A stretch of 48,808 nt of DNA, from NCBI GenBank assembly GCA_050295715.1, contig JBNKQE010000001.1:1-48808 (forward strand), written 5' to 3'. This document shows positions 395-48,808 of the stretch, in pieces. Below the pieces are notes generated by a model. The model saw nothing but the letters and a program-made list of their open reading frames with translations. It did no database searches and was not told where the DNA came from. This DNA comes from Leptospirales bacterium (GTDB taxonomy: Bacteria; Spirochaetota; Leptospiria; Leptospirales; Leptonemataceae). Within the stretch, counting starts at the first letter, position 1. Each line of letters starts with the position of its first letter. Both the position numbers and the translations under genes were made by a program.

Positions 395-3300
395 ATGAAT
401 CCTGTTATCAATATCCTGCACTTACTAAACAATCCAGTGGATGCTGAACCTGCCAGGGCCACTCTTGAGGAGGCGAGCTTTACTTGCCGTATTACCCTTG
501 TTCATACAAGTGATGAGTTTCATGGGGCACTGCAATTTACTGAGATAGATTTAATCCTCTCAGATTACAACCTGAAGATGTACGACGGTATGTCTGCACT
601 CAAGCTTGCATGTGATTTGTGTCCACAAGCCCCCTTTATCTTCGTGTCCCATTCTCCGGGAGAGGAGGCCATTATTGAAGCTATGACGCATGGTGCGACC
701 GATTTCGTCCTCAGGAATAATATAAAACGTCTTGGATCTTCCGTGAAGCGGGCCCTGCAAAAAAAGAGCGATACTGCCTTACACAAGCAGAATTACCGCA
801 GCCTGGTAGAAAGCTCACCGGATCTCATTATCCGTTACGACCTCGAACATCGCATTCGCTACCTCAATAACCGTCTGGTCAAGGATCTTGGGATTGCCAG
901 TGCGGACGAGGTGATCGGCCGCCGACCCATTGATATGTGGCCTGACGGCCGTTTCGCCGATATTGTCGAAGCCGCGCAGTGGGCGATTGCGACAGGATGC
1001 CACGAGACCATTGAAATGTTATGGCATACAAAAGGCGGCCAGACCTACATCGACCGGATCGTCGTCGTGCCGGAGCGCGACGTGGCAGGAAAAATCATCG
1101 GCACCCTCGCATTTGGCCGCGATATCACCGAGCGCAAGCAGATGGAAAAGTATGAACATTTTCGCAGTATGACCCTGGAGCGGCTTTCCAGAGGCGATCC
1201 GCTCTCAGCCATACTCGAGGGAATTGTGCGCAGCGTGGAGCAACTTTGTCCCGGGACGATTTGCAGCATCCTGTTGCTGGACAGTCAGGGCAAACGACTC
1301 GGCGAGGCTATCGCTCCAGGCCTGCCAGATTTTTATAACGCCGCGATCGATGGGATAGAGATTGGCATTGGCGTCGGCTGTTGCGGGACGGCCGCCGCCA
1401 CCGGGGAGCGCGTCATCATCGACGACATCATGACGCATCCCTACTGGGCGCCCTACAAAGAGGTCGCGGCCAGGGCTGGATTGGGCGCATGCTGGTCTGA
1501 GCCTATCCGTTCTTCCGCCGGCCAGGTGCTGGGCGCATTCGCCATATATCATCGTGAAGTGCATTCGCCTACGGAATTCGACATTTCTCTCATCGAAAAA
1601 TCCGTCCATCTGGTCAGTATTGCCATTGAGCGCAAACAAGCATCAACCCTACTGGTACAGCGTGAGCGTGAGTTCCGCAGTCTGGCAGAGAATCTGCCGG
1701 ACAACATTGTCCGCTACAATCGGCAAGGTATTACGGTATACGTCAATCCGGTGCTTGAACGCACTTTAGGAAGCAGTGCTGCCGCAATGATCGGCACAAC
1801 CCCACGCGAGTATTATCCCGATGGATCATACGAAGATTACGCGCAATTGCTGGATACCGTAATTGCCAGCGGTGAGGCAGGAGAGATTGAAAAAGTAATC
1901 CTGGGCCCAGACGGAGATGCACAAATTCATCTGATACGCATGTTTCCTGAACGTAGTGAGAACGGCGAAGTGGTCGGTGTTATTATGATTGGAAGCGATA
2001 TTACCGAGCGCAAACGCATGGAGGAAGTAAGTCTGGCTCATTTGCGCTTCTTTGAATATTTGGATCGGATCAATCGCGCCATACAGGGTACGAATGATAT
2101 CGAACAGATGATGAGCGATGTACTGGATGTCGTGCTTGCTATCTTCGACTGTGACCGGGCATTCCTTGTCTATCCCTGCGATCCCTGCGTGGATGGGTTT
2201 CGGGTGCCGATGGAACGCACCCGACCCGAATATCCCGGTGCCCTTGCCCAGGGGAAGGTTGTACCGATGGGAAAAGAAATGGAGGGTTTATTTCGCATTG
2301 TGCTGGGCATTGACGGCCCGGTGAAGTTCGGGCCCGAAGGTGAATATCCCCTCCCTCCATTCCTGTCAGAACAGTACTCTGTCAAGTCACTAATGTTAAT
2401 GGCCTTGCATCCCAAACAGGACAAACCCTGGCAGTTCGGACTGCATCAGTGTTCCCATTCCCGTGTCTGGTCTGGTGAGGACGAAAGGTTACTTCAGGAG
2501 ATCGGCCGGCGGCTGGAAGAAGGACTGACCAGCCTGCTTATGTATCGGAACCTGCAGGCCAGCGAGCAACAATTCCGTTCCCTGGCAGAGAATTTGCCTG
2601 TCTCCCTTGTTCGTTATGACCGCGAAGGCCGCCGCACCTATGTCAATCCCACACTGGAGCGTCTCTCTGACGTCAAGGCCGAGCAAATGCTCGGCAGGAC
2701 GCTGCGGGAAACCAATCCCGCCTCGACAACGGAAGCCTATCAGCGTATGCTGGAACACACGCTCGCCACAGGTGAGAAACGCGAGTTTGAAATGCGACTA
2801 CCCGCACCAACGGGCGAAGTAAGTACCGGCATCGTTCTCATCGCACCCGAGCACGGAGCAGACGGGCAGATATGCGGAGCCATTTCTATCGGTCGCGACA
2901 TCACCGAGCGCAAACAGGCGGAGGAGTCCATCCAGAAGCTTTATCAGGTAGTTGAACAAAGTCCGGTCTCTATCATGATCACCGATCTTTCCGGTAGAAT
3001 GGAATTCGTTAATACAAAATTCACCCAGGTTACCGGATATACTCATGCAGAAGCCCTGGGAAAGAACCCAAGAATCCTTAAGTCCGGTAAAATACCGGCC
3101 GCAGAGTATAAACGACTGTGGAGTATCATTAGTTCGGGGGGAATCTGGCAAGGAGAGTTACACAATCGGAAAAAGGACGGTGAGTTATTCTGGGAACAGG
3201 CGACCATCTCGCCGATTAAAGATGCAGAAAATAACATTACCCATTATGTAGCTATCAAAGAAGATGTGACCGAAAAAAAAATACTCGAAGAGAAGTTTCT

Positions 3301-4483
3301 TCACTCCCAGAAGATGGAAGCCGTCGGGCAATTGGCTGGCGGTGTGGCCCATGATTTAAACAATATGCTGGGGGTGATCATTGGATGCGCAGATATGGCC
3401 ATGGAAGACGTAAACATTGATGATATGGCCATCGATGCACCTTTTCGCGAAAATATTGAAGGAATCCTGACAGCCGGTCTTCGTTCTGCAGAAATAACAC
3501 GGCAATTGCTGACGTTTTCCCGAAAGAAGACCATTACCCCTGAGATCCTGGACTTGAACAATACTGTTGAGGGAATGCTTAAGTTACTCCGGCGGCTTAT
3601 TGGCGAGGATATCGAACTGGTATGGCTGCCAGGGGCAGATTTATGGCCAGTCAAAATGGATCCCTCCCAGATCGACCAGATTATGGCAAACCTGTGTGTC
3701 AATGCCAGGGATGCTATTGTCCATACAGGCCGGGTCACTATCGAAACGGATAAAGTGACTTTCGATGACGCTTACTGTGCCGAAAAAACAGAATTTTCAC
3801 CAGGCGAATATGTATTGATATCCGTGAGTGATAATGGCTGTGGCATGAACAAACAAACGATGAACAGAATCTTCGAGCCTTTTTTTACTACCAAAGGAGT
3901 GGACATAGGGACCGGACTGGGGTTGGCTACAGTCCATAGTATCGTTAAAGAGAATAAAGGTTTCATCAATGTTTATAGCGAACTGGAACATGGTACAACC
4001 TTCAAGATTTACTTGCCCCGACATGCTGTTTATTCTGATCTTCCGAGGGAAGAAATCCCTATTAACGTTGCCTCCCGGGGAACTGAAACGATTCTACTGG
4101 TTGAAGACGAGCCCGTAGTTCTGAACATGGTAAAACGAATGCTGGAAAATCTCGGATATGTGGTGTTATCCTCTACAACACCGGAAGTGGCTATACGTAT
4201 AGTGATTGAAAACTCCGACGATATAAAGTTGCTTATGACAGACGTGGTCATGCCTGAAATGAACGGTGGGAACCTTGCAAAAAAAGTGAAGTCTTTTTAT
4301 CCGGATCTCAAATGCCTGTTCATGTCCGGCTATACGGACGAGGTTATCACTCGACAGGGTATATTGAAAGAGGAGGTCCATTTCATTCAAAAGCCGTTTT
4401 CAAAAACTGTACTGGCAGCAAGATTACGCGAAGTACTGGATAGCAATCCAAAGATTGAAGATATCGGAACATTTCTTCATTAG
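395..4483 (+). CDS. Hybrid sensor histidine kinase / response regulator (REC, repeated PAS and GAF modules, HisKA, HATPase_c, REC)
   Basis: 1362-aa ORF with AGAGGG about 8 nt upstream of the ATG. N-terminal receiver (LILSDYNLKMYDG). Three PAS-end linkers of the form DITERK. H-box GGVAHDLNNMLGVI, N-box NLCVNARDA, G1 DNGCGM, G2 GTGLGLA. C-terminal receiver LLMTDVVMPEMNG. Confidence 0.9.
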   Translation: MNPVINILHLLNNPVDAEPARATLEEASFTCRITLVHTSDEFHGALQFTEIDLILSDYNLKMYDGMSALKLACDLCPQAPFIFVSHSPGEEAIIEAMTHGATDFVLRNNIKRLGSSVKRALQKKSDTALHKQNYRSLVESSPDLIIRYDLEHRIRYLNNRLVKDLGIASADEVIGRRPIDMWPDGRFADIVEAAQWAIATGCHETIEMLWHTKGGQTYIDRIVVVPERDVAGKIIGTLAFGRDITERKQMEKYEHFRSMTLERLSRGDPLSAILEGIVRSVEQLCPGTICSILLLDSQGKRLGEAIAPGLPDFYNAAIDGIEIGIGVGCCGTAAATGERVIIDDIMTHPYWAPYKEVAARAGLGACWSEPIRSSAGQVLGAFAIYHREVHSPTEFDISLIEKSVHLVSIAIERKQASTLLVQREREFRSLAENLPDNIVRYNRQGITVYVNPVLERTLGSSAAAMIGTTPREYYPDGSYEDYAQLLDTVIASGEAGEIEKVILGPDGDAQIHLIRMFPERSENGEVVGVIMIGSDITERKRMEEVSLAHLRFFEYLDRINRAIQGTNDIEQMMSDVLDVVLAIFDCDRAFLVYPCDPCVDGFRVPMERTRPEYPGALAQGKVVPMGKEMEGLFRIVLGIDGPVKFGPEGEYPLPPFLSEQYSVKSLMLMALHPKQDKPWQFGLHQCSHSRVWSGEDERLLQEIGRRLEEGLTSLLMYRNLQASEQQFRSLAENLPVSLVRYDREGRRTYVNPTLERLSDVKAEQMLGRTLRETNPASTTEAYQRMLEHTLATGEKREFEMRLPAPTGEVSTGIVLIAPEHGADGQICGAISIGRDITERKQAEESIQKLYQVVEQSPVSIMITDLSGRMEFVNTKFTQVTGYTHAEALGKNPRILKSGKIPAAEYKRLWSIISSGGIWQGELHNRKKDGELFWEQATISPIKDAENNITHYVAIKEDVTEKKILEEKFLHSQKMEAVGQLAGGVAHDLNNMLGVIIGCADMAMEDVNIDDMAIDAPFRENIEGILTAGLRSAEITRQLLTFSRKKTITPEILDLNNTVEGMLKLLRRLIGEDIELVWLPGADLWPVKMDPSQIDQIMANLCVNARDAIVHTGRVTIETDKVTFDDAYCAEKTEFSPGEYVLISVSDNGCGMNKQTMNRIFEPFFTTKGVDIGTGLGLATVHSIVKENKGFINVYSELEHGTTFKIYLPRHAVYSDLPREEIPINVASRGTETILLVEDEPVVLNMVKRMLENLGYVVLSSTTPEVAIRIVIENSDDIKLLMTDVVMPEMNGGNLAKKVKSFYPDLKCLFMSGYTDEVITRQGILKEEVHFIQKPFSKTVLAARLREVLDSNPKIEDIGTFLH

Positions 4484-6948: not shown

Positions 6949-7009
6949 TTGCAGCATTCATTAGATTATTTCTACTGAAAAAAAACTACATAAAAATTAG
7001 GAGAGAGTT

Positions 7010-7222
7010 ATGACAAAGGTTGAATTAAATGTAAAAGGAATGAGCTGTAATCACTGTGTTATGAGTGTAAAAGGGGCTCTTAAAGAGCTATCTGGAGTAG
7101 ACCAGGTGGATGTAGATCTGGAATCCGGTCATGTTACAATTAATTTTGAGGGAGATGACTCTCGAATCCCTGAGTTTAAACTGGCAATTGAGGGTCAGGG
7201 ATATGATGTAGAACAAAATTGA
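7010..7222 (+). CDS. copZ: Copper chaperone, heavy-metal-associated domain protein
   Basis: 70 aa with the GMSCNHC metal-binding motif. AGGAGAGAG Shine-Dalgarno upstream. Immediately downstream of copA. Confidence 0.9.
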   Translation: MTKVELNVKGMSCNHCVMSVKGALKELSGVDQVDVDLESGHVTINFEGDDSRIPEFKLAIEGQGYDVEQN

Positions 7223-7571
7223 AAATCTGGCATTACCGTTTCCATAAAGCAATCTGAGTCAAGAAACAGATTCATGGTTTAATCAAGTCCAAATGGTATA
7301 AATTCGCTGAAATAATCGTCAATTTTTAAGGAAAATAGTTTGATCAACCGGTTTGCAGAATATCAGATTGATGTTATTTGCTTTAAAAGTAAGTCTTATA
7401 ATGAAAGCATGGGTTATTGACCGATAATTTATGAAAGGGAGTCTTTCATTAAGAACGCTAAGATAACCAACTTAAATAATTGATTTTAACTTGATCGTAC
7501 GGTTGTCAGTAGTAAACAGCGAAAGACTTCCGATAGATCCATGACCGAATATATTACCTGGACTACCTGTT

Positions 7572-18416: not shown

Positions 18417-18440
18417 TTTGATGATATTTATAATAGCAGA

Positions 18441-18556
<116 letters not shown>

Positions 18557-36127: not shown

Positions 36128-37690
36128 ATGACCGACGCCAGCAAGAAAGAAGTTAGAACAAGATTCGCACCATCACCAAGCGGATTCCTCCATGTTGGAG
36201 GAGCACGAACTGCACTATTTAATTATCTGTATGCGAAAGCATGCAATGGAGAATTCATTCTTCGAGTGGAGGATACTGACCAGGAACGTTCTTCTCCTGA
36301 GTCGGAGCGGATAATACTTGAGTCCCTTAAATGGCTTGGTATTTATGCTGACGAAGGTGTCGAAGAGGGTGGTAATTTCGGCCCCTATCGCCAATCGGAA
36401 AGGCTCGGTATTTACGGACCTTACACACAGAAGCTTCTTGATAAGGGTGTAGCTTATCCCTGTTTTTGCAGCGATGAGGAGCTGGAAATCAAACAGGCAC
36501 AGTCAAGAAAACTGGGAGTACCTCATGTTTATGATGGAAAATGCAGAAACCTCAGTAATGCTGAACGCGATGAGAAAATAAAATCAGGCGAAAAGTATGC
36601 AATTCGCTTCAAGATTGATCCGACGGATATTGTTGTAGAAGACGTAGTACAGGGAAAGGTAAAATTTGACGCCCGTCTTATTGGAGATTTTATAATTGTG
36701 AAATCCGACGGATTTCCTTCATACAACTATGCAGTAGTCATTGATGACTATGAAATGAAAATATCCCACGTTATTCGTGGAGTCGGTCATCTTTCCAACA
36801 CTCCACGGCAGATTCTAATCCATGAAGCACTCGGATTTGAGCTTCCCGTTTATGCACATATCTCTGAAATTGTTGGAACAGATAAAAAGAAACTCTCAAA
36901 AAGACGTGGAGCCACTTCGGTCCTCTTTTTCAGAGATCTTGGTTATCTTTCTGAGGCTTTCGTAAACTACATGGCACTGCTTGGCTGGTATCCAGATGAC
37001 GGTGTTGAGTTTATGCCTGACGGAAAACTGGCTGAGAAATTTGATGTAGCACGATGCTCAAAAAGTCCTGCGATGTTTGATTTTTTCCTTACGGAGAAAG
37101 CTGAAAAAGAGGGTGGTGCCGAGTTTGATCCAACAGGAATGAGCCGTGAAGAACTGAAGAAATTCATTAACAATAAGACAAAACTAAACTGGTTGAATAA
37201 CAAGTATATTCGGCACGTTGAGCTGGAATCGATCTGGTCTCTTGCAAAAGAATTTATCTCAAAGGATGAGAGTATTTCAAAACTTTTAAAAGATGACGAA
37301 GAGAGAATCAAAATGACTTTTGATACACTTCGCGTTTATCTGGATACAATGGATGATGCTGTTCCCTATATGAAGGAAATTTTCCATGAGAAAATTGAAC
37401 CGGATTCCGAGGCGGCACTCAATCTTATCAGACAGGAGGAATCCATTACAACGGTAAAAGCTTTTGTCGAAGTTCTCGGGGAGACAAAGCCGGAAGATCC
37501 GGAGTCTTTCAGTACTGCGATGAAGGAAGCTGGGAAACGGGCCGGAACAAAGGGGAAAGGATTATTCATGCCGATTCGTGTTGCAAGCACCGGTAGTATG
37601 CAGGGGCTTGAATTGCCAACATTCTTCACAATCATAGGATACGAATCAGTTATTAAACGTATTGACCAGGCACTGGCAAATCTTTCGTAA
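36128..37690 (+). CDS. gltX: Glutamate--tRNA ligase
   Basis: RFAPSPSGFLHVGGART (HIGH motif), KLSKRRG (KMSKS motif), class I catalytic core and C-terminal anticodon-binding domain. Confidence 0.97.
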   Translation: MTDASKKEVRTRFAPSPSGFLHVGGARTALFNYLYAKACNGEFILRVEDTDQERSSPESERIILESLKWLGIYADEGVEEGGNFGPYRQSERLGIYGPYTQKLLDKGVAYPCFCSDEELEIKQAQSRKLGVPHVYDGKCRNLSNAERDEKIKSGEKYAIRFKIDPTDIVVEDVVQGKVKFDARLIGDFIIVKSDGFPSYNYAVVIDDYEMKISHVIRGVGHLSNTPRQILIHEALGFELPVYAHISEIVGTDKKKLSKRRGATSVLFFRDLGYLSEAFVNYMALLGWYPDDGVEFMPDGKLAEKFDVARCSKSPAMFDFFLTEKAEKEGGAEFDPTGMSREELKKFINNKTKLNWLNNKYIRHVELESIWSLAKEFISKDESISKLLKDDEERIKMTFDTLRVYLDTMDDAVPYMKEIFHEKIEPDSEAALNLIRQEESITTVKAFVEVLGETKPEDPESFSTAMKEAGKRAGTKGKGLFMPIRVASTGSMQGLELPTFFTIIGYESVIKRIDQALANLS

Positions 37691-37730
37691 TTTTGAATTC
37701 TCTAAAATTCATTTAATTATACTGAGTCCA

Positions 37731-37778
37731 AACGTCTGGCATTTTACTTTTCAATTTAAGAAGTAAATGCCAGACGTT
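37731..37778 (+). terminator. Long stem-loop downstream of gltX (about 18-bp stem, one bulged T)
   Basis: AACGTCTGGCATTTTACTT - 11-nt loop - AAGTAAATGCCAGACGTT, 40 nt after the gltX stop. There is no clean T-run after it, so its terminator function is uncertain. Confidence 0.5.
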
Positions 37779-38046
37779 CCTCTATATATTTAATATACCA
37801 TTATTAAATCTTTATTCATTTCTGATTTATTATTTATCACGAACTGCAAATTCTATCGCTTCAAATTAGAAACTATCTGCATAAAAACTCTTTTCATTCA
37901 AAATTGGCTCTGATATAATCCATCAGTCTATTGAGCAAGGTTCAACTTTACCATTTGGACCTGCAGTAACAGTGCAATCCTTTGTGAGCGGCCGATTTTT
38001 TTTTGAATTATCCGGGAATTTCTGAACTTTTCATACACTGATTTGT

Positions 38047-38529: not shown

Positions 38530-38672
38530 ACTACACACCTCGAGAAGAGTAACCTGCGGCTGATTCCGGGGTAAAAAGCAACAAACTCGTTATATTTGTC
38601 GCAGGCGGGATTTCATAAAATTACGAATAGGTATTCCTGATGCTTGCTCAGCAGCGTGATTAGTTACTAATT

Positions 38673-38708
38673 ACTATACTGCATACTATCAAGGATTTGC
38701 AGTATAGT
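38673..38708. repeat. 11-bp perfect inverted repeat with 14-nt spacer in the DUF1564/DUF59 intergenic region
   Basis: ACTATACTGCA (38673-38683) and TGCAGTATAGT (38698-38708). No T-run follows on either strand. Confidence 0.6.
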
Positions 38709-38885
38709 CAGAGGAACGAACCTATGAAAATATAACATCATCGTTGCAATATCCAGCGAATGAATCTTCGTAATCGCCGCATATTGAAAATCATAAAACA
38801 AGAGATAAAAAGGTCTGAATCTTCACTCTAAAAGCAGTTGAAAATCATTCTCAATGTCTTTTTATTGGATAAACAGGGGACGTAT

Positions 38886-44883: not shown

Positions 44884-46413
44884 TCAGAAAACAAAGTAAA
44901 TAAATTGATGCGCGCCGGAAACATTTAGAGGAATCAGAAATCCTCCGATCAGCGCTGCTGCAATAATCAAAAGTACCGGATCATACTTTCTCCAGCTTTC
45001 GAGAAATCCCTTTCGGTATTGAATCACATGAAAGAAAAATAACAGAAGAAACATTGCGATTAAGGAATCATACGTTCCAATATGTACGGTTTCAAATAAT
45101 TCATTGCCGAATATACTTAGAAGTAATTCCGGATCGCCCCCGGATATTTCGTATTCGTGTTCGATTAATGACGGGCCATGTGTGAAAATTCCCGAAAGCA
45201 TGGTTCCCATTATATCCGCTGAAGTATGAATGTGATCGCCATGATTGACCTTCTGTGAACGAAACATTATAGCGCCGATGGAGAATAAGAGAAACATTAT
45301 AAGGATTCGAATCCCTCGGTAGAAGCGATTGGAATCTGGCAGGAACTTCCATCCGAGATCTTTTTCAATAAATCTCTCAAGAGCTAGAAGAAATCCCCAC
45401 ATCGCACCCCAGGCAAGAAAGGTATAGTCAGCCCCGTGCCACAGTCCACCCAGAGTAAATGTAATAAACAGGTTTATATAATTTCTAAATTTCCCAACCC
45501 GGCTGCCGCCCAATGGGATGTAGATATAGTCACGAAGCCAGGAGGCAAGCGTGATATGCCATCTCTGCCAGAGTTCTCTCGCTGATTGCGAAAAGAATGG
45601 CGCCAGAAAGTTTTCAGGAATATCGTAACCGAGAAGTCTGGCAGATCCGCGGGCAATATCCGTATAACCGGAAAAGTCTCCGTAAACCTGGAGGGAAAAT
45701 CCCATCCCCGCTACAAGTAGGGACCACCAGTCATAGACTCCTGGATTATAGAAAATTGGTGCGATGATCCCGCCCATGGGATCTGCAAGTAATATCTTCT
45801 TGGTTAACCCGCCAAGGATCAACCAGCTTCCATCAAACATAGCTCTTTTATTAAAAACCGGTTTATCAATCTGATCCATAAAATCCGTGGATCGCATGAT
45901 AGGCCCTGCAATAAGCTGGGGAAAAAAGAGAATGAATAAGAAAAAACGAGCAGGGCCTGAGTCTTCATCAATGACGCCACGGTAAACATCTACGCCATAA
46001 GCCATTAACTGGAATGTATAGAAACTCAGAGCAAGTGGAAGGAAAAAATCAATGCCCCTGTATTCTTCAGGAATGGGAAGATTCAGATCAAAAAATACAC
46101 GGGTGAAAAAACCAATATATTTGAAAACTATCAGGTTAACAAGATCAACAGTTACCAGAGAAACAAAATAGATTTTTTTCCTGGAAGGATCGGTTAACAT
46201 CCTGCGTATGAGCAGGTAATTGATAGCGATCATCCCGGCGAAGTGAATTGTCCATCGGAGGCCTGGAAGTCCTTCCCTCTGGAGACCCCATGCGGCGTAG
46301 AACACAATAGATGCGCCGATCAGTAAATACTGACGTGCCCTTCCACGCAAGTTCCAGTAAAGGAGGTATACTACGGGAAAAAATAATAGATAAAGAACCG
46401 AGTTAAATAGCAT
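44884..46413 (-). CDS. MBOAT-family membrane O-acyltransferase (AlgI/DltB/PatA-like)
   Basis: Polytopic protein with signature WQRWHITLASWLRDYIYIPLGGSR and the conserved His in GGLWHGA. Confidence 0.95.
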   Translation of the reverse strand: MLFNSVLYLLFFPVVYLLYWNLRGRARQYLLIGASIVFYAAWGLQREGLPGLRWTIHFAGMIAINYLLIRRMLTDPSRKKIYFVSLVTVDLVNLIVFKYIGFFTRVFFDLNLPIPEEYRGIDFFLPLALSFYTFQLMAYGVDVYRGVIDEDSGPARFFLFILFFPQLIAGPIMRSTDFMDQIDKPVFNKRAMFDGSWLILGGLTKKILLADPMGGIIAPIFYNPGVYDWWSLLVAGMGFSLQVYGDFSGYTDIARGSARLLGYDIPENFLAPFFSQSARELWQRWHITLASWLRDYIYIPLGGSRVGKFRNYINLFITFTLGGLWHGADYTFLAWGAMWGFLLALERFIEKDLGWKFLPDSNRFYRGIRILIMFLLFSIGAIMFRSQKVNHGDHIHTSADIMGTMLSGIFTHGPSLIEHEYEISGGDPELLLSIFGNELFETVHIGTYDSLIAMFLLLFFFHVIQYRKGFLESWRKYDPVLLIIAAALIGGFLIPLNVSGAHQFIYFVF

Positions 46414-46506
46414 ATATCAACCCCACGGGTTGCGCTCAACATACTCAGACAAGATTTATAGAGGGATTTTCTCGGTCCAGTGTAATACTGTTATACTTAG
46501 CAAAAA

Positions 46507-46600
46507 CCGTAACTATTCACCACGTAGTATGTTAAGAGGAACTGAAGCCTGTTTCATTATCCGAGCAGACGAGCATCCTTGCCCGGCTGCTCGGAAGAGG
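46507..46600. repeat. Structured direct repeat, copy 1 (94 nt)
   Basis: Matches 46741-46834 with 5 mismatches (3 in the 87-nt core). Contains hairpin B, CCGAGCAG-N18-CTGCTCGG (46561-46594). Confidence 0.9.
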
Positions 46601-46640
46601 CCCGTCCATGGACCTCAGTAATGAAACAGGCTTCAGTTCC
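46538..46640. repeat. Perfect 22-bp inverted repeat (103-nt stem-loop) built on repeat copy 1
   Basis: GGAACTGAAGCCTGTTTCATTA (46538-46559) and its exact reverse complement TAATGAAACAGGCTTCAGTTCC (46619-46640). They enclose hairpin B and the palindrome GTCCATGGAC. Confidence 0.9.
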
Positions 46641-46740
46641 CAAACATAATAGAAGTTCCAGTTATAGGGCGACTTGATGAAAAATTTCGAGCCGTAGCCA
46701 ATTATCTTTTATCAGTCTATACTGATATTCTCACTTACAT

Positions 46741-46834
46741 CAGTAATTATTCACCACGTAGTATGTTAAGAGGAACAGAAGCCTGTTCCATTATCCGAGC
46801 AGACGAGCATCCTTGCCCGGTTGCTCGGAAGAGG
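46741..46834. repeat. Structured direct repeat, copy 2 (94 nt)
   Basis: Direct repeat of 46507-46600. Has a perfect hairpin A, GGAACAG-AAGC-CTGTTCC (46772-46789), and hairpin B (46795-46828, one G.T pair). Ends 13 nt from the nrnA stop. Confidence 0.9.
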
Positions 46835-46847
46835 TATAAATTTGATT

Positions 46848-47846
46848 TCAGGGTTGAATATTGAGAGTTCGTAACAGGTGAGGTATAAACTCTTCGATCG
46901 CTGCACTCATTTCTTTTTTAATTGAGGCGCCACAGGCATTCTTATGCCCTCCTCCCCCAAACGGTTCTACCGCAGGCAGCAGGTCAGTATCACCTTTAGA
47001 TCGAACGGATACTTTTGTCAGACCTGGATTTCGTTCTGTGAAAAGGGCTCCCACTTTGATCTGAGTCGGTTCAATGAGTTCATTTACTATGCCTTCGAGA
47101 TCATCAAAGGTAAGCTCCAGCTTTTCCAGGTCTTTCCAGGAGATCTGAAACCAGGCAACACTTTCCGTGGCGTCCAGCTCCAACCGATTGTATAACTGTT
47201 GTTTCATTCTTAATCGGGCAAGGGGACCATGGAATTGAATCTGGTCATTGATGAAATCCGGTCTTACACCAGCCTCCAGGAGGTGGGCGGCTATTTCATG
47301 AGTGCGTGGTCGAGTTTTTCTGTAACGAAAATTTCCGGTGTCCATAATGATTCCCGTATACAGTGCCATAGCAATATTGACCGGGATTTGCAGTCCTGAA
47401 ATATTATAGATCTCAAAAATGATTTCACTGGAAGAGCTAATCCCCGGGAATTGAAAAAGGTTTTTATAATCGGCCTGTGCATTGTCGTGGTGATCTATGA
47501 TGATCAGGTTGGAACGATCCTCTCGAAGATATTTTGAAACATCTCCAATTCGATCAATTTCAGAATTGTCAACACAAATAACTGTTTGACCATTCACTTC
47601 CGGAATCCCTGTGGATTCGCTGATACTGGAAGTATTTCTGTTTATATCCAGGAAGCGTATCTTTTCCGGCACCTTTTCCTGGTTGAGTATGTGAACATCC
47701 GCACCTCTATTCTTGAACAGGTCATACAGTGCAAGTTCAGCACCAAGTCCATCGGCGTCAGGAGTACGATGAGTCGTTATTATAACGTTCTTCTCATCCT
47801 TAATCCTATCATAAAGGAGTGAATACTGTTCCCGGAAGTCCATCAT
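46848..47846 (-). CDS. nrnA: DHH/DHHA1 phosphoesterase, NrnA-like nanoRNase / pAp phosphatase
   Basis: DHH motifs (HRTPDADGLG, IIDHHDN) and the DHHA1 motif GGGGHKNACG. Confidence 0.85.
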   Translation of the reverse strand: MMDFREQYSLLYDRIKDEKNVIITTHRTPDADGLGAELALYDLFKNRGADVHILNQEKVPEKIRFLDINRNTSSISESTGIPEVNGQTVICVDNSEIDRIGDVSKYLREDRSNLIIIDHHDNAQADYKNLFQFPGISSSSEIIFEIYNISGLQIPVNIAMALYTGIIMDTGNFRYRKTRPRTHEIAAHLLEAGVRPDFINDQIQFHGPLARLRMKQQLYNRLELDATESVAWFQISWKDLEKLELTFDDLEGIVNELIEPTQIKVGALFTERNPGLTKVSVRSKGDTDLLPAVEPFGGGGHKNACGASIKKEMSAAIEEFIPHLLRTLNIQP

Positions 47847-48145: not shown

Positions 48146-48808
48146 TTATATTTTTTCGATTATTTTACGAGCGGCTTCTGATAACTCTTCAGGAGTATTC
48201 GGAAGATCTTCTGATTTTACGCGTTCAAGAAGCTGTTTGAGTATGTCTCCCATAGCAGGCCCCGGTTCTACTCCCATATCCATAAGAGAGTGTCCGTCTA
48301 TGGTAAGGTCTTTTACTTTGAGTTCAGCTTCCTGTTTGCGAACATCTTCCATATGGCGCATCAGTTCTTTAATAGCACGTGGAAGGGCCTGCTTTTTGCC
48401 GCTTCCTTTTCTATCTGCCAGACGAAGGGAGATCAGGTCTTTTAGATCTTCCTGACCTATCTTGCGCATAAACCTGCGAATAGCTCGGTCGGACCACTCT
48501 TGAGTGTAATGAAACATATGGTTTCTGACAAGAAAGCGAACCCTTTTTCCGGTTTCTGTTGGATAGGCGAATCTTCTCATTATTCTTTCGGCATGTCTTG
48601 CACTGACAAGTTCATGATTGTAGAAAGTTACCTCACCATTCTCTTTTTCTCTACGTGTTTCCACTTTCCCCAGATCATGAAATAGACCCGAGAGACGAAC
48701 TTCCAGAACAGCCGGTTCCACATGGTCACAAGTATAAAGGTTATGATAAAAAATATCATAACTGTGATATTTGTTTTGCATCAAACCCTGGCCTGCAGCC
48801 AGCTCCGG
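48146..48808 (-). CDS. HD-domain C-terminal part of a CCA-adding enzyme / poly(A) polymerase family protein (5' end lies outside the window)
   Basis: HD motif (LFHDLGK) and YNHELVSARHAERIM. The reading frame stays open from 48784 to the window edge (PELAAGQG...), so the gene is truncated by the window. Confidence 0.75.
   Translation of the reverse strand, partial: PELAAGQGLMQNKYHSYDIFYHNLYTCDHVEPAVLEVRLSGLFHDLGKVETRREKENGEVTFYNHELVSARHAERIMRRFAYPTETGKRVRFLVRNHMFHYTQEWSDRAIRRFMRKIGQEDLKDLISLRLADRKGSGKKQALPRAIKELMRHMEDVRKQEAELKVKDLTIDGHSLMDMGVEPGPAMGDILKQLLERVKSEDLPNTPEELSEAARKIIEKI

Follow-up and report, generated by a model that had tools for sequence, protein, structure and literature searches.

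The window, by which we mean the whole 48.8 kb stretch of DNA analysed here, carries an unusually repetitive spacer between the gene for an NrnA-like DHH/DHHA1 phosphoesterase and the gene for an MBOAT-family O-acyltransferase, and the question it raises is what kind of sequence these repeats are: an earlier note on this DNA had read them as structured RNA or DNA elements under constraint. Both flanking genes lie on the minus strand, the phosphoesterase gene upstream (46848-47846, Pfam PF01368 and PF02272, with homologues named NrnA) and the acyltransferase gene downstream (44884-46413, Pfam PF03062, E = 3.6e-32, its start codon supported by a conserved MLFNS N-terminus), and the repeats do sit, as had been described, in a non-coding gap of 434 nt between them (46414-46847). 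The same spacer measures 21, 21, 106, 127 and 185 nt in five relatives, the last value being that of the nearest relative, and the gene order HD-nrnA-MBOAT-DUF1574 is kept in four of the five relatives examined (L007 has nrnA-MBOAT-DUF1574 only). In relatives the spacer is short and, at its shortest, clearly intra-operonic. The MBOAT-proximal 70-95 nt of the spacer can still be aligned with the closest relative, the native part (46414-46484, minus strand) through CACTGGACCG and CTGAG motifs, and the extra spacer length therefore corresponds to the repeat block. This block has a GC content of 0.55 vs. 0.355 in the remaining 4.6 kb of the window's intergenic DNA, and none of the relatives' nrnA-MBOAT spacers contains GC-rich hairpins of the two types proposed for the repeats (hairpins A and B). 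We conclude that the block at 46485-46834 is lineage-specific, GC-rich palindromic repeat DNA which enlarges the nrnA-MBOAT spacer.

No direct repeat and no inverted repeat elsewhere in the window is as long as those in this block, and in pattern searches for the parts of the repeats within the window 0.00-0.01 matches were expected by chance. Re-counting the direct repeats at 46507-46600 and 46741-46834 gave the same figures as the earlier note, 5 mismatches in 94 nt and 3 in the 87-nt core, located at positions 46508, 46513, 46543, 46554 and 46587 (copy 1/copy 2 differences of the types C>A, C>T, T>A, T>C and C>T), and the best core found by blastn pairs 46509-46600 with 46743-46834 (92 nt, 95.7% identity, 4 mismatches). 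Copy 1 is composed of a 29-nt leader (46509-46537), an arm (L1) and a hairpin (B1) and ends in AAGAGG; copy 2 has the corresponding leader (46743-46771), arm (L2) and hairpin (B2), yet is a half-copy with no inverted partner arm, its end lying 13 nt from the stop codon of nrnA. A repeat search extended the pair leftward to 46485 and 46719 (116 nt, 89%), through a degenerate stretch (46485-46508, counterpart 46719-46742) in which 15 of 24 positions are identical; this similarity exceeds chance (random-walk p about 0.002), and the extension is more diverged than the core (Fisher p = 7e-5). The 234-nt periodicity spans 350 nt only, equal to 1.5 units, and a simple tandem duplication was rejected, as the segment 46601-46718 has no counterpart at 46835-46952 or at 46367-46484.

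A perfect 22-nt inverted repeat (46538-46559/46619-46640), absent from the earlier account, changes how copy 1 is read. Arm L1 (46538-46559, GGAACTGAAGCCTGTTTCATTA), a quasi-palindrome itself, forms the left arm of a 22-bp stem, whilst arm R (46619-46640), 59 nt downstream, is its exact reverse complement; all 22 positions pair with 0 mismatches, where 0.01 matches would be expected by chance, and the complementarity continues imperfectly to about 46652 (TATTATGTT-TG vs. TAGTATGTTAAGA). Both of the hairpins that had been assigned to each unit exist, hairpin B being longer (36 nt) than described, but hairpin A does not stand as a structural unit of copy 1: its bases pair 22/22 with the distal arm R instead, and with this perfect distal partner copy 1 becomes the left half of a 103-nt hairpin. 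Hairpin B1 (46560-46595) is an imperfect palindrome with 14 of 16 pairs and a TCCT loop; one of its mismatches, A.C on the plus strand, becomes G.U on the minus strand. Hairpin B2 (46794-46829) is the same palindrome with one C-to-T change at 46821. Hairpin C (46597-46616, GAGGCCCGTCCATGGACCTC) is present in copy 1 only, where it makes 7 pairs on the minus strand including one G.U, which is a C.A mismatch on the plus strand. From L1 through R, enclosing B1 and C, the sequence makes a 103-nt three-way-junction hairpin, and the complete compound palindrome, with the L1:R stem and the two side hairpins, covers 46525-46652 (minus strand). Arm L2 (46772-46793) lies 131 nt beyond R with its own hairpin B copy; it has 2 differences from L1, is 91% complementary to R and folds as a perfect local 7-bp hairpin. 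A quasi-palindromic module of ~35 nt is therefore present three times, in the direct-inverted-direct order L1, R, L2.

No 120-nt fold in the window is more stable than the compound hairpin at -75.3 kcal/mol, the runner-up being a fold of -53.8 kcal/mol in coding DNA with a GC content of 0.675. As RNA the hairpin folds to -76.6 kcal/mol on the minus strand and -68.1 kcal/mol on the plus strand (z -10.8 to -11.0), and as DNA it reaches a z of about -13 with the strands equal; copy 2 folds with z = -5.4 on the plus strand (-32 kcal/mol) and -5.7 on the minus strand. The strong structure ascribed to the repeats is borne out by these values, z being about -11 for the complete copy-1 hairpin. The inference drawn from that structure fares less well. 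The differences between the copies preserve structure, as had been observed, but what was described as the repair of a T.T mismatch and a G.T wobble reflects two different pairing contexts, and the substitution pattern had been taken as a sign of constraint although 3 substitutions are too few to establish selection. That all 3 core substitutions fall in stems has a p of about 0.04-0.13, stems making up 35-50% of the core, and hairpin-templated repair would leave such a pattern with no selection at work. Substitutions that respect the structure, seen between a pair of local repeat copies, are not on their own a sign of an RNA gene.

Searches for further copies covered genomes, metagenomes, mobile elements and proteins. 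No second copy was found within the window by blastn, and exact-pattern scans for the 22-nt arm in GTDB representative genomes, JGI metagenomes and IMG/VR returned no true copy, only isolated matches with unrelated flanks which we took as chance. Similarly, a degenerate hairpin-B pattern had no match in IMG/VR viral contigs, the repeat block had none in plasmids and phages by blastn, and a six-frame translation of 46503-46658, aimed at spurious open-reading frames called over other copies of the element, had none among 5.8 billion predicted proteins. Look-ups of the exact MBOAT and DUF1574 proteins, meant to reveal further assemblies of the organism, gave no record. A covariance model based on both copies, searched against 105 kb of the relatives' syntenic loci, recovered the window only (best foreign E = 1.4), and blastn of the spacer against all fetched relatives' loci gave no meaningful match. 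In agreement with the earlier note, a covariance-model search matched no Rfam family in the spacer at the gathering threshold, and across the whole window it found a 5S rRNA and a tRNA only. At E up to 10, eukaryotic miRNA-precursor models fell on the repeat block below threshold (E = 0.15-1.4), matches which merely detect the long hairpin, and three unrelated sub-threshold matches lay in flanking genes. A tRNA or tmRNA identity for the block was likewise rejected on search. Pfam searches of the window (7 open-reading frames unmatched) found no transposase (including Y1_Tnp), RAYT, integrase or reverse transcriptase. The best NrnA identity to the collections' proteins is 57%, and the collections hold no close relative of the organism, so the lack of a second copy is weak negative evidence. 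No homologue for a covariation analysis was found in the collections or at the syntenic loci.

The reading we favour, tentatively, is that of a lineage-specific palindromic repeat, present as one complete copy and one half-copy, which forms passive stem-loops in the sense nrnA-MBOAT RNA. Its origin is most likely a small non-autonomous palindromic repeat element with a MITE/REPIN-like architecture, and the block has the look of ordinary palindromic DNA, selfish or rearranged, and is not demonstrably a new small-RNA gene. A REPIN is defined as a pair of inverted REPs, each an imperfect palindrome, which have a 34-110-bp spacer between them and form a hairpin; singlets are decayed remnants (PMC3337134). 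The L1/R pair has this structure, an inverted imperfect-palindromic pair with a spacer that folds into a hairpin: the palindromes of REPINs are short (18-22 nt) and inverted, those of L1/R likewise, pairing 22/22, the 59-nt L1-R spacer is within the REPIN range, and the whole folds to a hairpin of ~100 nt in an extragenic position between co-directional genes. As with REP singlets, the nearby unpaired copy (L2) is more diverged than the paired arms. However, the spacer makes two side hairpins at a three-way junction rather than extending the stem as in a REPIN, only one locus is seen in 48.8 kb, with no RAYT gene seen in the window, and the half-copy, unlike a REP singlet, also has the inner hairpin B and a 29-nt asymmetric leader. 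In REPs, moreover, the stem is directly flanked by an unpaired tetranucleotide, GTAG or CGTC (PMC3733652); here 10 nt separate a GTAG (46524-46527) from the stem, CTAT stands at the matching place of the inverted arm, and CGTC occurs only inside the hairpin-B stem.

By the definition of a MITE (terminal inverted repeats, 50-500 bp) the element qualifies, with terminal inverted repeats of 22 nt (perfect) to ~35 nt (imperfect) spanning 103-128 nt. It is also MITE-like in its size of 100-180 nt, in terminal inverted repeats of 22-35 nt, in lying intergenic and within an operon, in its predicted co-transcription and folding in the mRNA, and in being confined to one lineage and absent from the relatives' syntenic sites. 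Bacterial MITEs and long palindromic intergenic repeats include ERIC/IRU, Correia/NEMIS and RUP. Unlike MITEs, it has no target-site duplication (none was seen on reading the sequence at 46525/46652, 46538/46640 and 46509/46688), no parent IS with matching inverted repeats was found, and it is seen at one locus and resembles no database entry in sequence. Of all bacterial orders, Leptospirales are reported to be the richest in MITEs, at about 154 per genome (PMC11602168), so one such locus per 48.8 kb is to be expected.

In the proposed mechanism the element, having no promoter or intrinsic terminator of its own, is probably transcribed from the minus strand within the nrnA to MBOAT-DUF1574 message, where very stable stem-loops are predicted to form. 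These stem-loops would protect the upstream nrnA segment from 3'-5' exonucleolytic decay, and the perfect 22-bp duplex may offer a potential RNase III cleavage site, at which cleavage would partly uncouple nrnA from MBOAT-DUF1574 expression. A comparable partial uncoupling of gene expression is caused by REP, BIME and ERIC elements in enterobacterial operons. Any such effect on expression is a by-product of insertion and does not count as evidence for a dedicated RNA gene. Should the element belong to a dispersed family, it would define, for a deeply branching and uncultured lineage of Leptospirales, a new MITE/REPIN-like element, and would be a clean case of palindromic DNA splitting the conserved nrnA-MBOAT-DUF1574 string, with mRNA processing possibly affected.

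Outside the palindrome both copies have in common the 29-nt asymmetric leader and the weakly similar 24 nt, features which fit a local duplication at least as well as transposition. It is possible, if on balance unlikely, that no mobile element was involved and that the block arose in situ, by two replication template switches at quasi-palindromes that produced a direct-inverted-direct triplication. In such a history one unit (leader, arm and hairpin B) already lay downstream of nrnA in an ancestral spacer of ~200 nt, deletion and decay reshaped the junctions afterwards, hairpin-templated repair kept the perfect 22-bp stem homogeneous, and the product is neutral or mildly regulatory. Direct-inverted-direct triplications of this kind are the tandem inversion duplications of Salmonella, and tandem inversion duplications and quasi-palindrome template-switch rearrangements are known from Salmonella and E. 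coli genetics. The module order here is the same and, as in those cases, the outer copies are contiguous with native flanks, copy 1 on the MBOAT-proximal side and copy 2 at the nrnA end. Subtracting one 234-nt period from the 434 nt leaves 200 nt, near the 185 nt of the nearest relative. Hairpin B, an ideal snap-back quasi-palindrome, lies at the first junction, exactly between L1 and the inverted segment, and a small palindrome (ATCAGT-CTAT-ACTGAT, 46711-46726), which folds as a hairpin within the full spacer, has its centre where the copy-2 extension starts (46719) and is a possible second rearrangement junction. A repeat that reaches weakly into 24 nt of AT-rich ordinary spacer (p about 0.002), with no further copy found in the window or in the GTDB, JGI or protein searches, also fits a local origin. 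However, the central segment shows no detectable inverted similarity to the unit past ~35 nt (p = 0.12-0.6 in shuffle tests), and a simple snap-back at B does not predict the 23-nt hairpin C that separates B from the inverted arm. The scale is ~100 nt, whereas tandem inversion duplications measure kilobases, the uneven divergence (0/22, 4/92 and 9/24 differences) requires added assumptions, and hairpins A and B are absent from relatives, so a foreign or de novo origin of the unit would still be needed. If the block is purely local, it represents a neat small-scale direct-inverted-direct template-switch rearrangement.

Rather less probable, and in our view improbable, is a selected cis-regulatory RNA in the sense message, in which the three arms are mutually exclusive helices that set the ratio of nrnA to MBOAT-DUF1574: R' would pair with L2' first and switch to the perfect R':L1' helix once L1' has been transcribed, the switch acting in processing, attenuation or translation. 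The predicted folds agree with this order of events, as a partial transcript from 46847 to 46612 folds R' on L2' (-87.2 kcal/mol, z = -8.9) whilst the full spacer folds R' on L1'. The G.U wobbles favour the minus strand, the arm differences are structure-consistent in both contexts (L1/R perfect, L2 self-perfect), and the core is far better conserved than the 24-nt extension. Alternative pairings are automatic in any direct-inverted-direct repeat, however, and neither helix is followed by a U-tract, the minus-strand sequence after the hairpins being UAAUGG or UCUUAAC; no Rho-independent terminator was called on either strand in 46300-46950. The block resembles the sRNAs and cis-regulators of Rfam in its statistically exceptional secondary structure in a non-coding gap, yet unlike them it has no Rfam model match, no promoter or terminator and no conservation in relatives: those with the same gene order have spacers of 21-185 nt with nothing similar, and homologues for a covariation analysis were not found. 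That the arms and the duplicated hairpin B make up a new kind of intra-operon RNA switch, with an R':L1' helix cleavable by RNase III, is very improbable; if true, it would tune the envelope O-acyltransferase pair (MBOAT-DUF1574) relative to the nanoRNase NrnA.

We give as little credence to the model of the earlier note, in which the copies are plus-strand sRNA genes of ~70-110 nt, antisense to their neighbours and structurally selected, with copy 2 driven by TTACAT-N18-TAGTAT. Both copies do fold well on the plus strand, the C-to-T change in hairpin B of copy 2 makes a G.U pair there as against C.A on the minus strand, and in each copy a TAGTAT hexamer stops 6 nt short of where the 22-bp stem begins. 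The proposed promoter agrees with TTGACA/TATAAT at 2 and 4 positions, 6 of 12 in all, and was not called by a consensus scan of the region, which gave 2 promoter-like sites vs. 1.8 expected and no sigma-70-like promoter at the repeats; no terminator follows either copy. The deduction of a plus-strand transcript is contradicted by the two wobble positions, in hairpin B (both copies) and in hairpin C, which favour the minus strand, and by a minus-strand fold that is 8.5 kcal/mol better. Copy 1 does not fold into the proposed hairpin A, neither an Rfam match nor a homologue was found, and no related copies turned up in any relative, as far as the databases allow, an outcome which is part of what the note itself had named as counting against its model. 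An identity of the block as an intrinsic terminator or a sigma-70 promoter was rejected, no such site having been called at the repeats. Both copies contain open-reading frames, MLRGTEAC(F/S)IIRADEHPCP... on the plus strand and M(K/E)QASVPLNILRGE on the minus strand, but small-protein coding was rejected, with no ribosome-binding site, no homologue and 1 synonymous vs. 2 non-synonymous substitutions.

A function of the block as a DNA-level site, either as operators for a dimeric regulator or as a cruciform, recombination or topology site, is extremely unlikely: the 9-bp perfect inverted arms TCCGAGCAG/CTGCTCGGA occur twice, 234 bp apart, as candidate operators, in a palindrome that is repeated with a single substitution and folds equally as DNA on both strands, but there is no adjacent regulator gene, the 18 nt between the arms pair too, as is usual for hairpin elements but not for operators, the motif lies upstream of no other gene in the window, and integron attC core sites are absent. 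An attC site would carry, on an imperfect palindrome, the core sites R''(RYYYAAC)...R'(GTTRRRY), with intI close by, and was rejected as GTTAAGA and CCCAAAC are off the core consensus and the window has no integrase. A TR/VR pair of a diversity-generating retroelement would show adenine-specific differences, a VR in a coding region and a reverse transcriptase nearby; this too was rejected, the differences not being adenine-specific, the copies being non-coding and no reverse transcriptase being present in the window.

Finally, it is hardly credible that the 234-nt period is an assembly artefact, a de Bruijn-graph loop caused by strain variants or by a repeat elsewhere, with a true spacer of ~200 nt. 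The window is a metagenome contig, the spacer is of normal length after removing one period, and an independent Logan unitig breaks at 46791, where the next 31-mer is common to both copies. Against this, the unique middle segment (46601-46718) is joined to repeat copies on both sides and must therefore lie between two copies in real DNA, and the 4 core differences, together with the diverged 24-nt extension, suggest paralogues rather than alleles. The unitig itself (L001, SRR36185845), 100% identical over 1993 nt, covers the right half of copy 2 including its T variant and confirms the junction between copy 2 and nrnA.

The MBOAT gene (44884-46413) and the NrnA-like DHH/DHHA1 gene (46848-47846) both lie on the minus strand and are separated by 434 nt, as the earlier note had it, and the direct repeats it placed in this gap at 46507-46600 (copy 1) and 46741-46834 (copy 2) are found at those positions, differing at 46508, 46513, 46543, 46554 and 46587. 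The feature is real, and a striking one. No direct repeat of the 48.8-kb window is longer than this pair; the best blastn alignment gives a core of 92 nt at 95.7% identity (46509-46600 vs. 46743-46834), and a repeat search extends it leftward to 46485/46719 (116 nt at 89%). The 24 nt so added are identical at 15 of 24 positions, which is above chance (p about 0.002), and show much greater divergence than the core (Fisher p = 7e-5). A palindrome, ATCAGT-CTAT-ACTGAT (46711-46726), is centred exactly on 46719, the start of the degenerate extension of copy 2, and is a possible rearrangement junction. An independent Logan unitig from SRR36185845 matches the window at 100% identity over 1993 nt, takes in copy 2 over its right half, and ends at 46791, precisely where the next 31-mer becomes common to both copies.

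Copy 1 is predicted to make up the left half of a hairpin of 103 nt with a three-way junction, since its arm L1 (46538-46559, GGAACTGAAGCCTGTTTCATTA; 22 nt, the previously described hairpin A plus CATTA) pairs with its perfect reverse complement R (46619-46640) and encloses hairpin B (46560-46595) and a small hairpin C (46597-46616). No inverted repeat of the window is longer than L1 and R, whose complementarity runs on imperfectly for ~13 nt more before it is no longer significant. Hairpin B, correctly noticed before, is really a 36-nt imperfect palindrome with 14 of 16 pairs and the loop TCCT. Copy 2 has hairpin B and an arm (L2, 46772-46793) without a partner, so that the modules run direct (L1), inverted (R), direct (L2); here hairpin A does exist as a perfect 7-bp self-fold of the arm, whereas in copy 1 its bases have the perfect distal partner. 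As RNA, the compound hairpin has a predicted folding energy of -76.6 kcal/mol on the minus strand (z = -11.0) and -68.1 kcal/mol on the plus strand (z = -10.8); as DNA, either strand gives about -44.5 kcal/mol (z about -13). Of all 120-nt windows scanned on the two strands, it gives the most stable fold (-75.3 kcal/mol), the runner-up (-53.8 kcal/mol) lying in coding DNA with a GC of 0.675. An AAGAGG followed after 8 nt by ATG (46609) opens a 13-codon open-reading frame (MDLSNETGFSSQT; 46595-46649, plus strand) across hairpin C and arm R, which occurs in copy 1 only and has neither a counterpart in copy 2 nor a protein homologue.

The window is ordinary chromosome of an uncultured Leptospirales lineage, it encodes the Leptospira-type families DUF1574 and DUF1564, and its best NrnA relative shares just 57% identity. 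Of the five relatives examined, four keep the gene string HD/CCA-like, nrnA, MBOAT, DUF1574, and the fifth (L007, GCA_050305915.1) has a different gene upstream of nrnA. The nrnA-MBOAT spacers measure 21 nt in two relatives (L008, L009), 106 nt in L010, 127 nt in L007 and 185 nt in the closest relative, L005, vs. 434 nt here; as the MBOAT-proximal 70-95 nt can still be aligned with the nearest relative, the excess length is the repeat block, whose palindrome has a GC of 0.55 vs. 0.355 in the other intergenic DNA of the window. A canonical hairpin and T-run terminator follows nrnA in L007 (6985-7025), and set beside the two 21-nt gaps this shows that the operon status of nrnA-MBOAT varies across the lineage. 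Immediately before the MBOAT start codon, a 6-bp hairpin (CAACCC-GUG-GGGUUG; 46414-46440, minus strand) holds the only G-rich Shine-Dalgarno-like stretch and is not obviously conserved in L005.

The feature had been flagged as matching no recognised element, rightly so; searches for related copies and an Rfam family found none. There are no other copies in the window (blastn), no related element in IMG/VR or among plasmids and phages, and no related Rfam family; a covariance model built from both copies detected nothing related in 105 kb of the relatives' syntenic loci, and a six-frame translation, aimed at open-reading frames miscalled over other copies, found nothing among 5.8 billion proteins. 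GTDB genomes and JGI metagenomes gave just isolated matches with unrelated flanks, which we take as chance. In an Ignavibacteriae MAG (PMCM01000176.1), 38 nt (L002, 3379-3416) lying within GC-rich, probably coding DNA are 84% identical to L1 and the start of hairpin B without an inverted partner; the similarity extends ~16 nt past the searched pattern, but given that 596 Gb were scanned we take this match, too, as chance. These searches show no more than that the element lacks a wide distribution, in collections that have no close relative of the organism.

REPINs consist of two imperfect-palindromic REPs, inverted, with a 34-110-bp spacer, forming a hairpin overall with decayed singlets nearby (PMC3337134). 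The compound hairpin with its half-copy matches that architecture, here at one known locus, and the match to MITEs, of which Leptospirales is the most rich order reported (about 154 per genome; PMC11602168), and to long palindromic intergenic repeats is looser. The stem is not adjoined by the GTAG/CGTC head of a REP (PMC3733652), no target-site duplication is seen at the repeat block, and Pfam finds no transposase, RAYT, integrase or reverse transcriptase among the predicted proteins of the window, seven open-reading frames having no Pfam match. The feature is best classed as a new example of intergenic palindromic repeat DNA, known so far from this single locus, and we tentatively favour its origin as a palindromic element over an origin in situ. 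A serious rival, if a somewhat unlikely one, is that template switching at quasi-palindromes produced the direct-inverted-direct order in a rearrangement confined to this locus: hairpin B lies at the first junction, the palindrome at 46711-46726 at the second, and removal of one 234-nt period leaves a 200-nt spacer like those of the relatives, but the central segment is recognisably inverted over just ~35 nt.

The pairing favours the minus strand: an A.C mismatch of hairpin B in both copies and a C.A mismatch of hairpin C become G.U there, and the minus-strand RNA folds 8.5 kcal/mol better. This speaks against a plus-strand RNA, which had been deduced from one stem pair, a G-C that is G.T in copy 2. 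A scan of the repeat region found no terminator-like site on either strand and did not call the proposed promoter, TTACAT-N18-TAGTAT, which has just 6 of 12 consensus positions. Because of this lack of promoter and terminator, and the wobble pairs, the palindromic block is probably transcribed within the nrnA-MBOAT message, where it would form passive stable stem-loops that may protect the 3' end of the nrnA mRNA, the 22-bp duplex being a possible RNase III site. Such by-product effects are well known for REP, BIME and ERIC elements. A dedicated sense-strand RNA switch, its sole basis the predicted pairing of R' with L2' (the arms as read in the sense transcript) before L1' is transcribed, is possible but unsupported, and we think it improbable. 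The hairpin-A substitutions, read earlier as repairs, are better seen as two pairing contexts: the T,T state of L1 has its exact complement, A,A, in the distal arm, and the A,C state of L2 makes the local hairpin perfect. This is structure-consistent evolution that does not require RNA selection; hairpin-templated DNA repair, or the need of a mobile palindrome for matched arms, would give the same pattern, and three substitutions in stems covering 35-50% of the core carry p about 0.04-0.13. A reading as an RNA gene has no support from strand, promoter, terminator or conservation, and the plus-strand small RNA of the earlier note is unlikely.

Elsewhere, a 433-nt gap contains a 5S rRNA gene (18440-18556, minus strand, 95 bits) by itself, the window having neither a 16S nor a 23S gene; Leptospiraceae are known for their unlinked rRNA genes, a trait in keeping with the taxonomic placement. 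The gene of a hybrid histidine kinase of 1362 aa with PAS/GAF and receiver domains (395-4483, plus strand) reaches a GC of 0.58-0.675 in sub-windows, especially at 870-2790, vs. about 0.41 in the rest of the window, and its internal DNA periodicity of ~880-900 nt (a 51-nt repeat family with members at 1099, 1975 and 2875) is consistent with repeated PAS modules. The window ends within a conserved HD/tRNA_NucTran2_2 (CCA-adding-like) gene (48146-48808, minus strand), and the Logan unitig ends 25 nt short of the window's end, both assemblies breaking at nearly the same place in a coding region. Other unusually long intergenic gaps, at 6949-7571 (623 nt), 37691-38046 (356 nt) and 38530-38837 (308 nt), have no Rfam matches; the second contains, just downstream of the gene for a class I tRNA synthetase of the Glu/Gln type (36128-37690), a 14-nt inverted repeat with perfect arms (37731-37744/37765-37778), probably a terminator-like hairpin.
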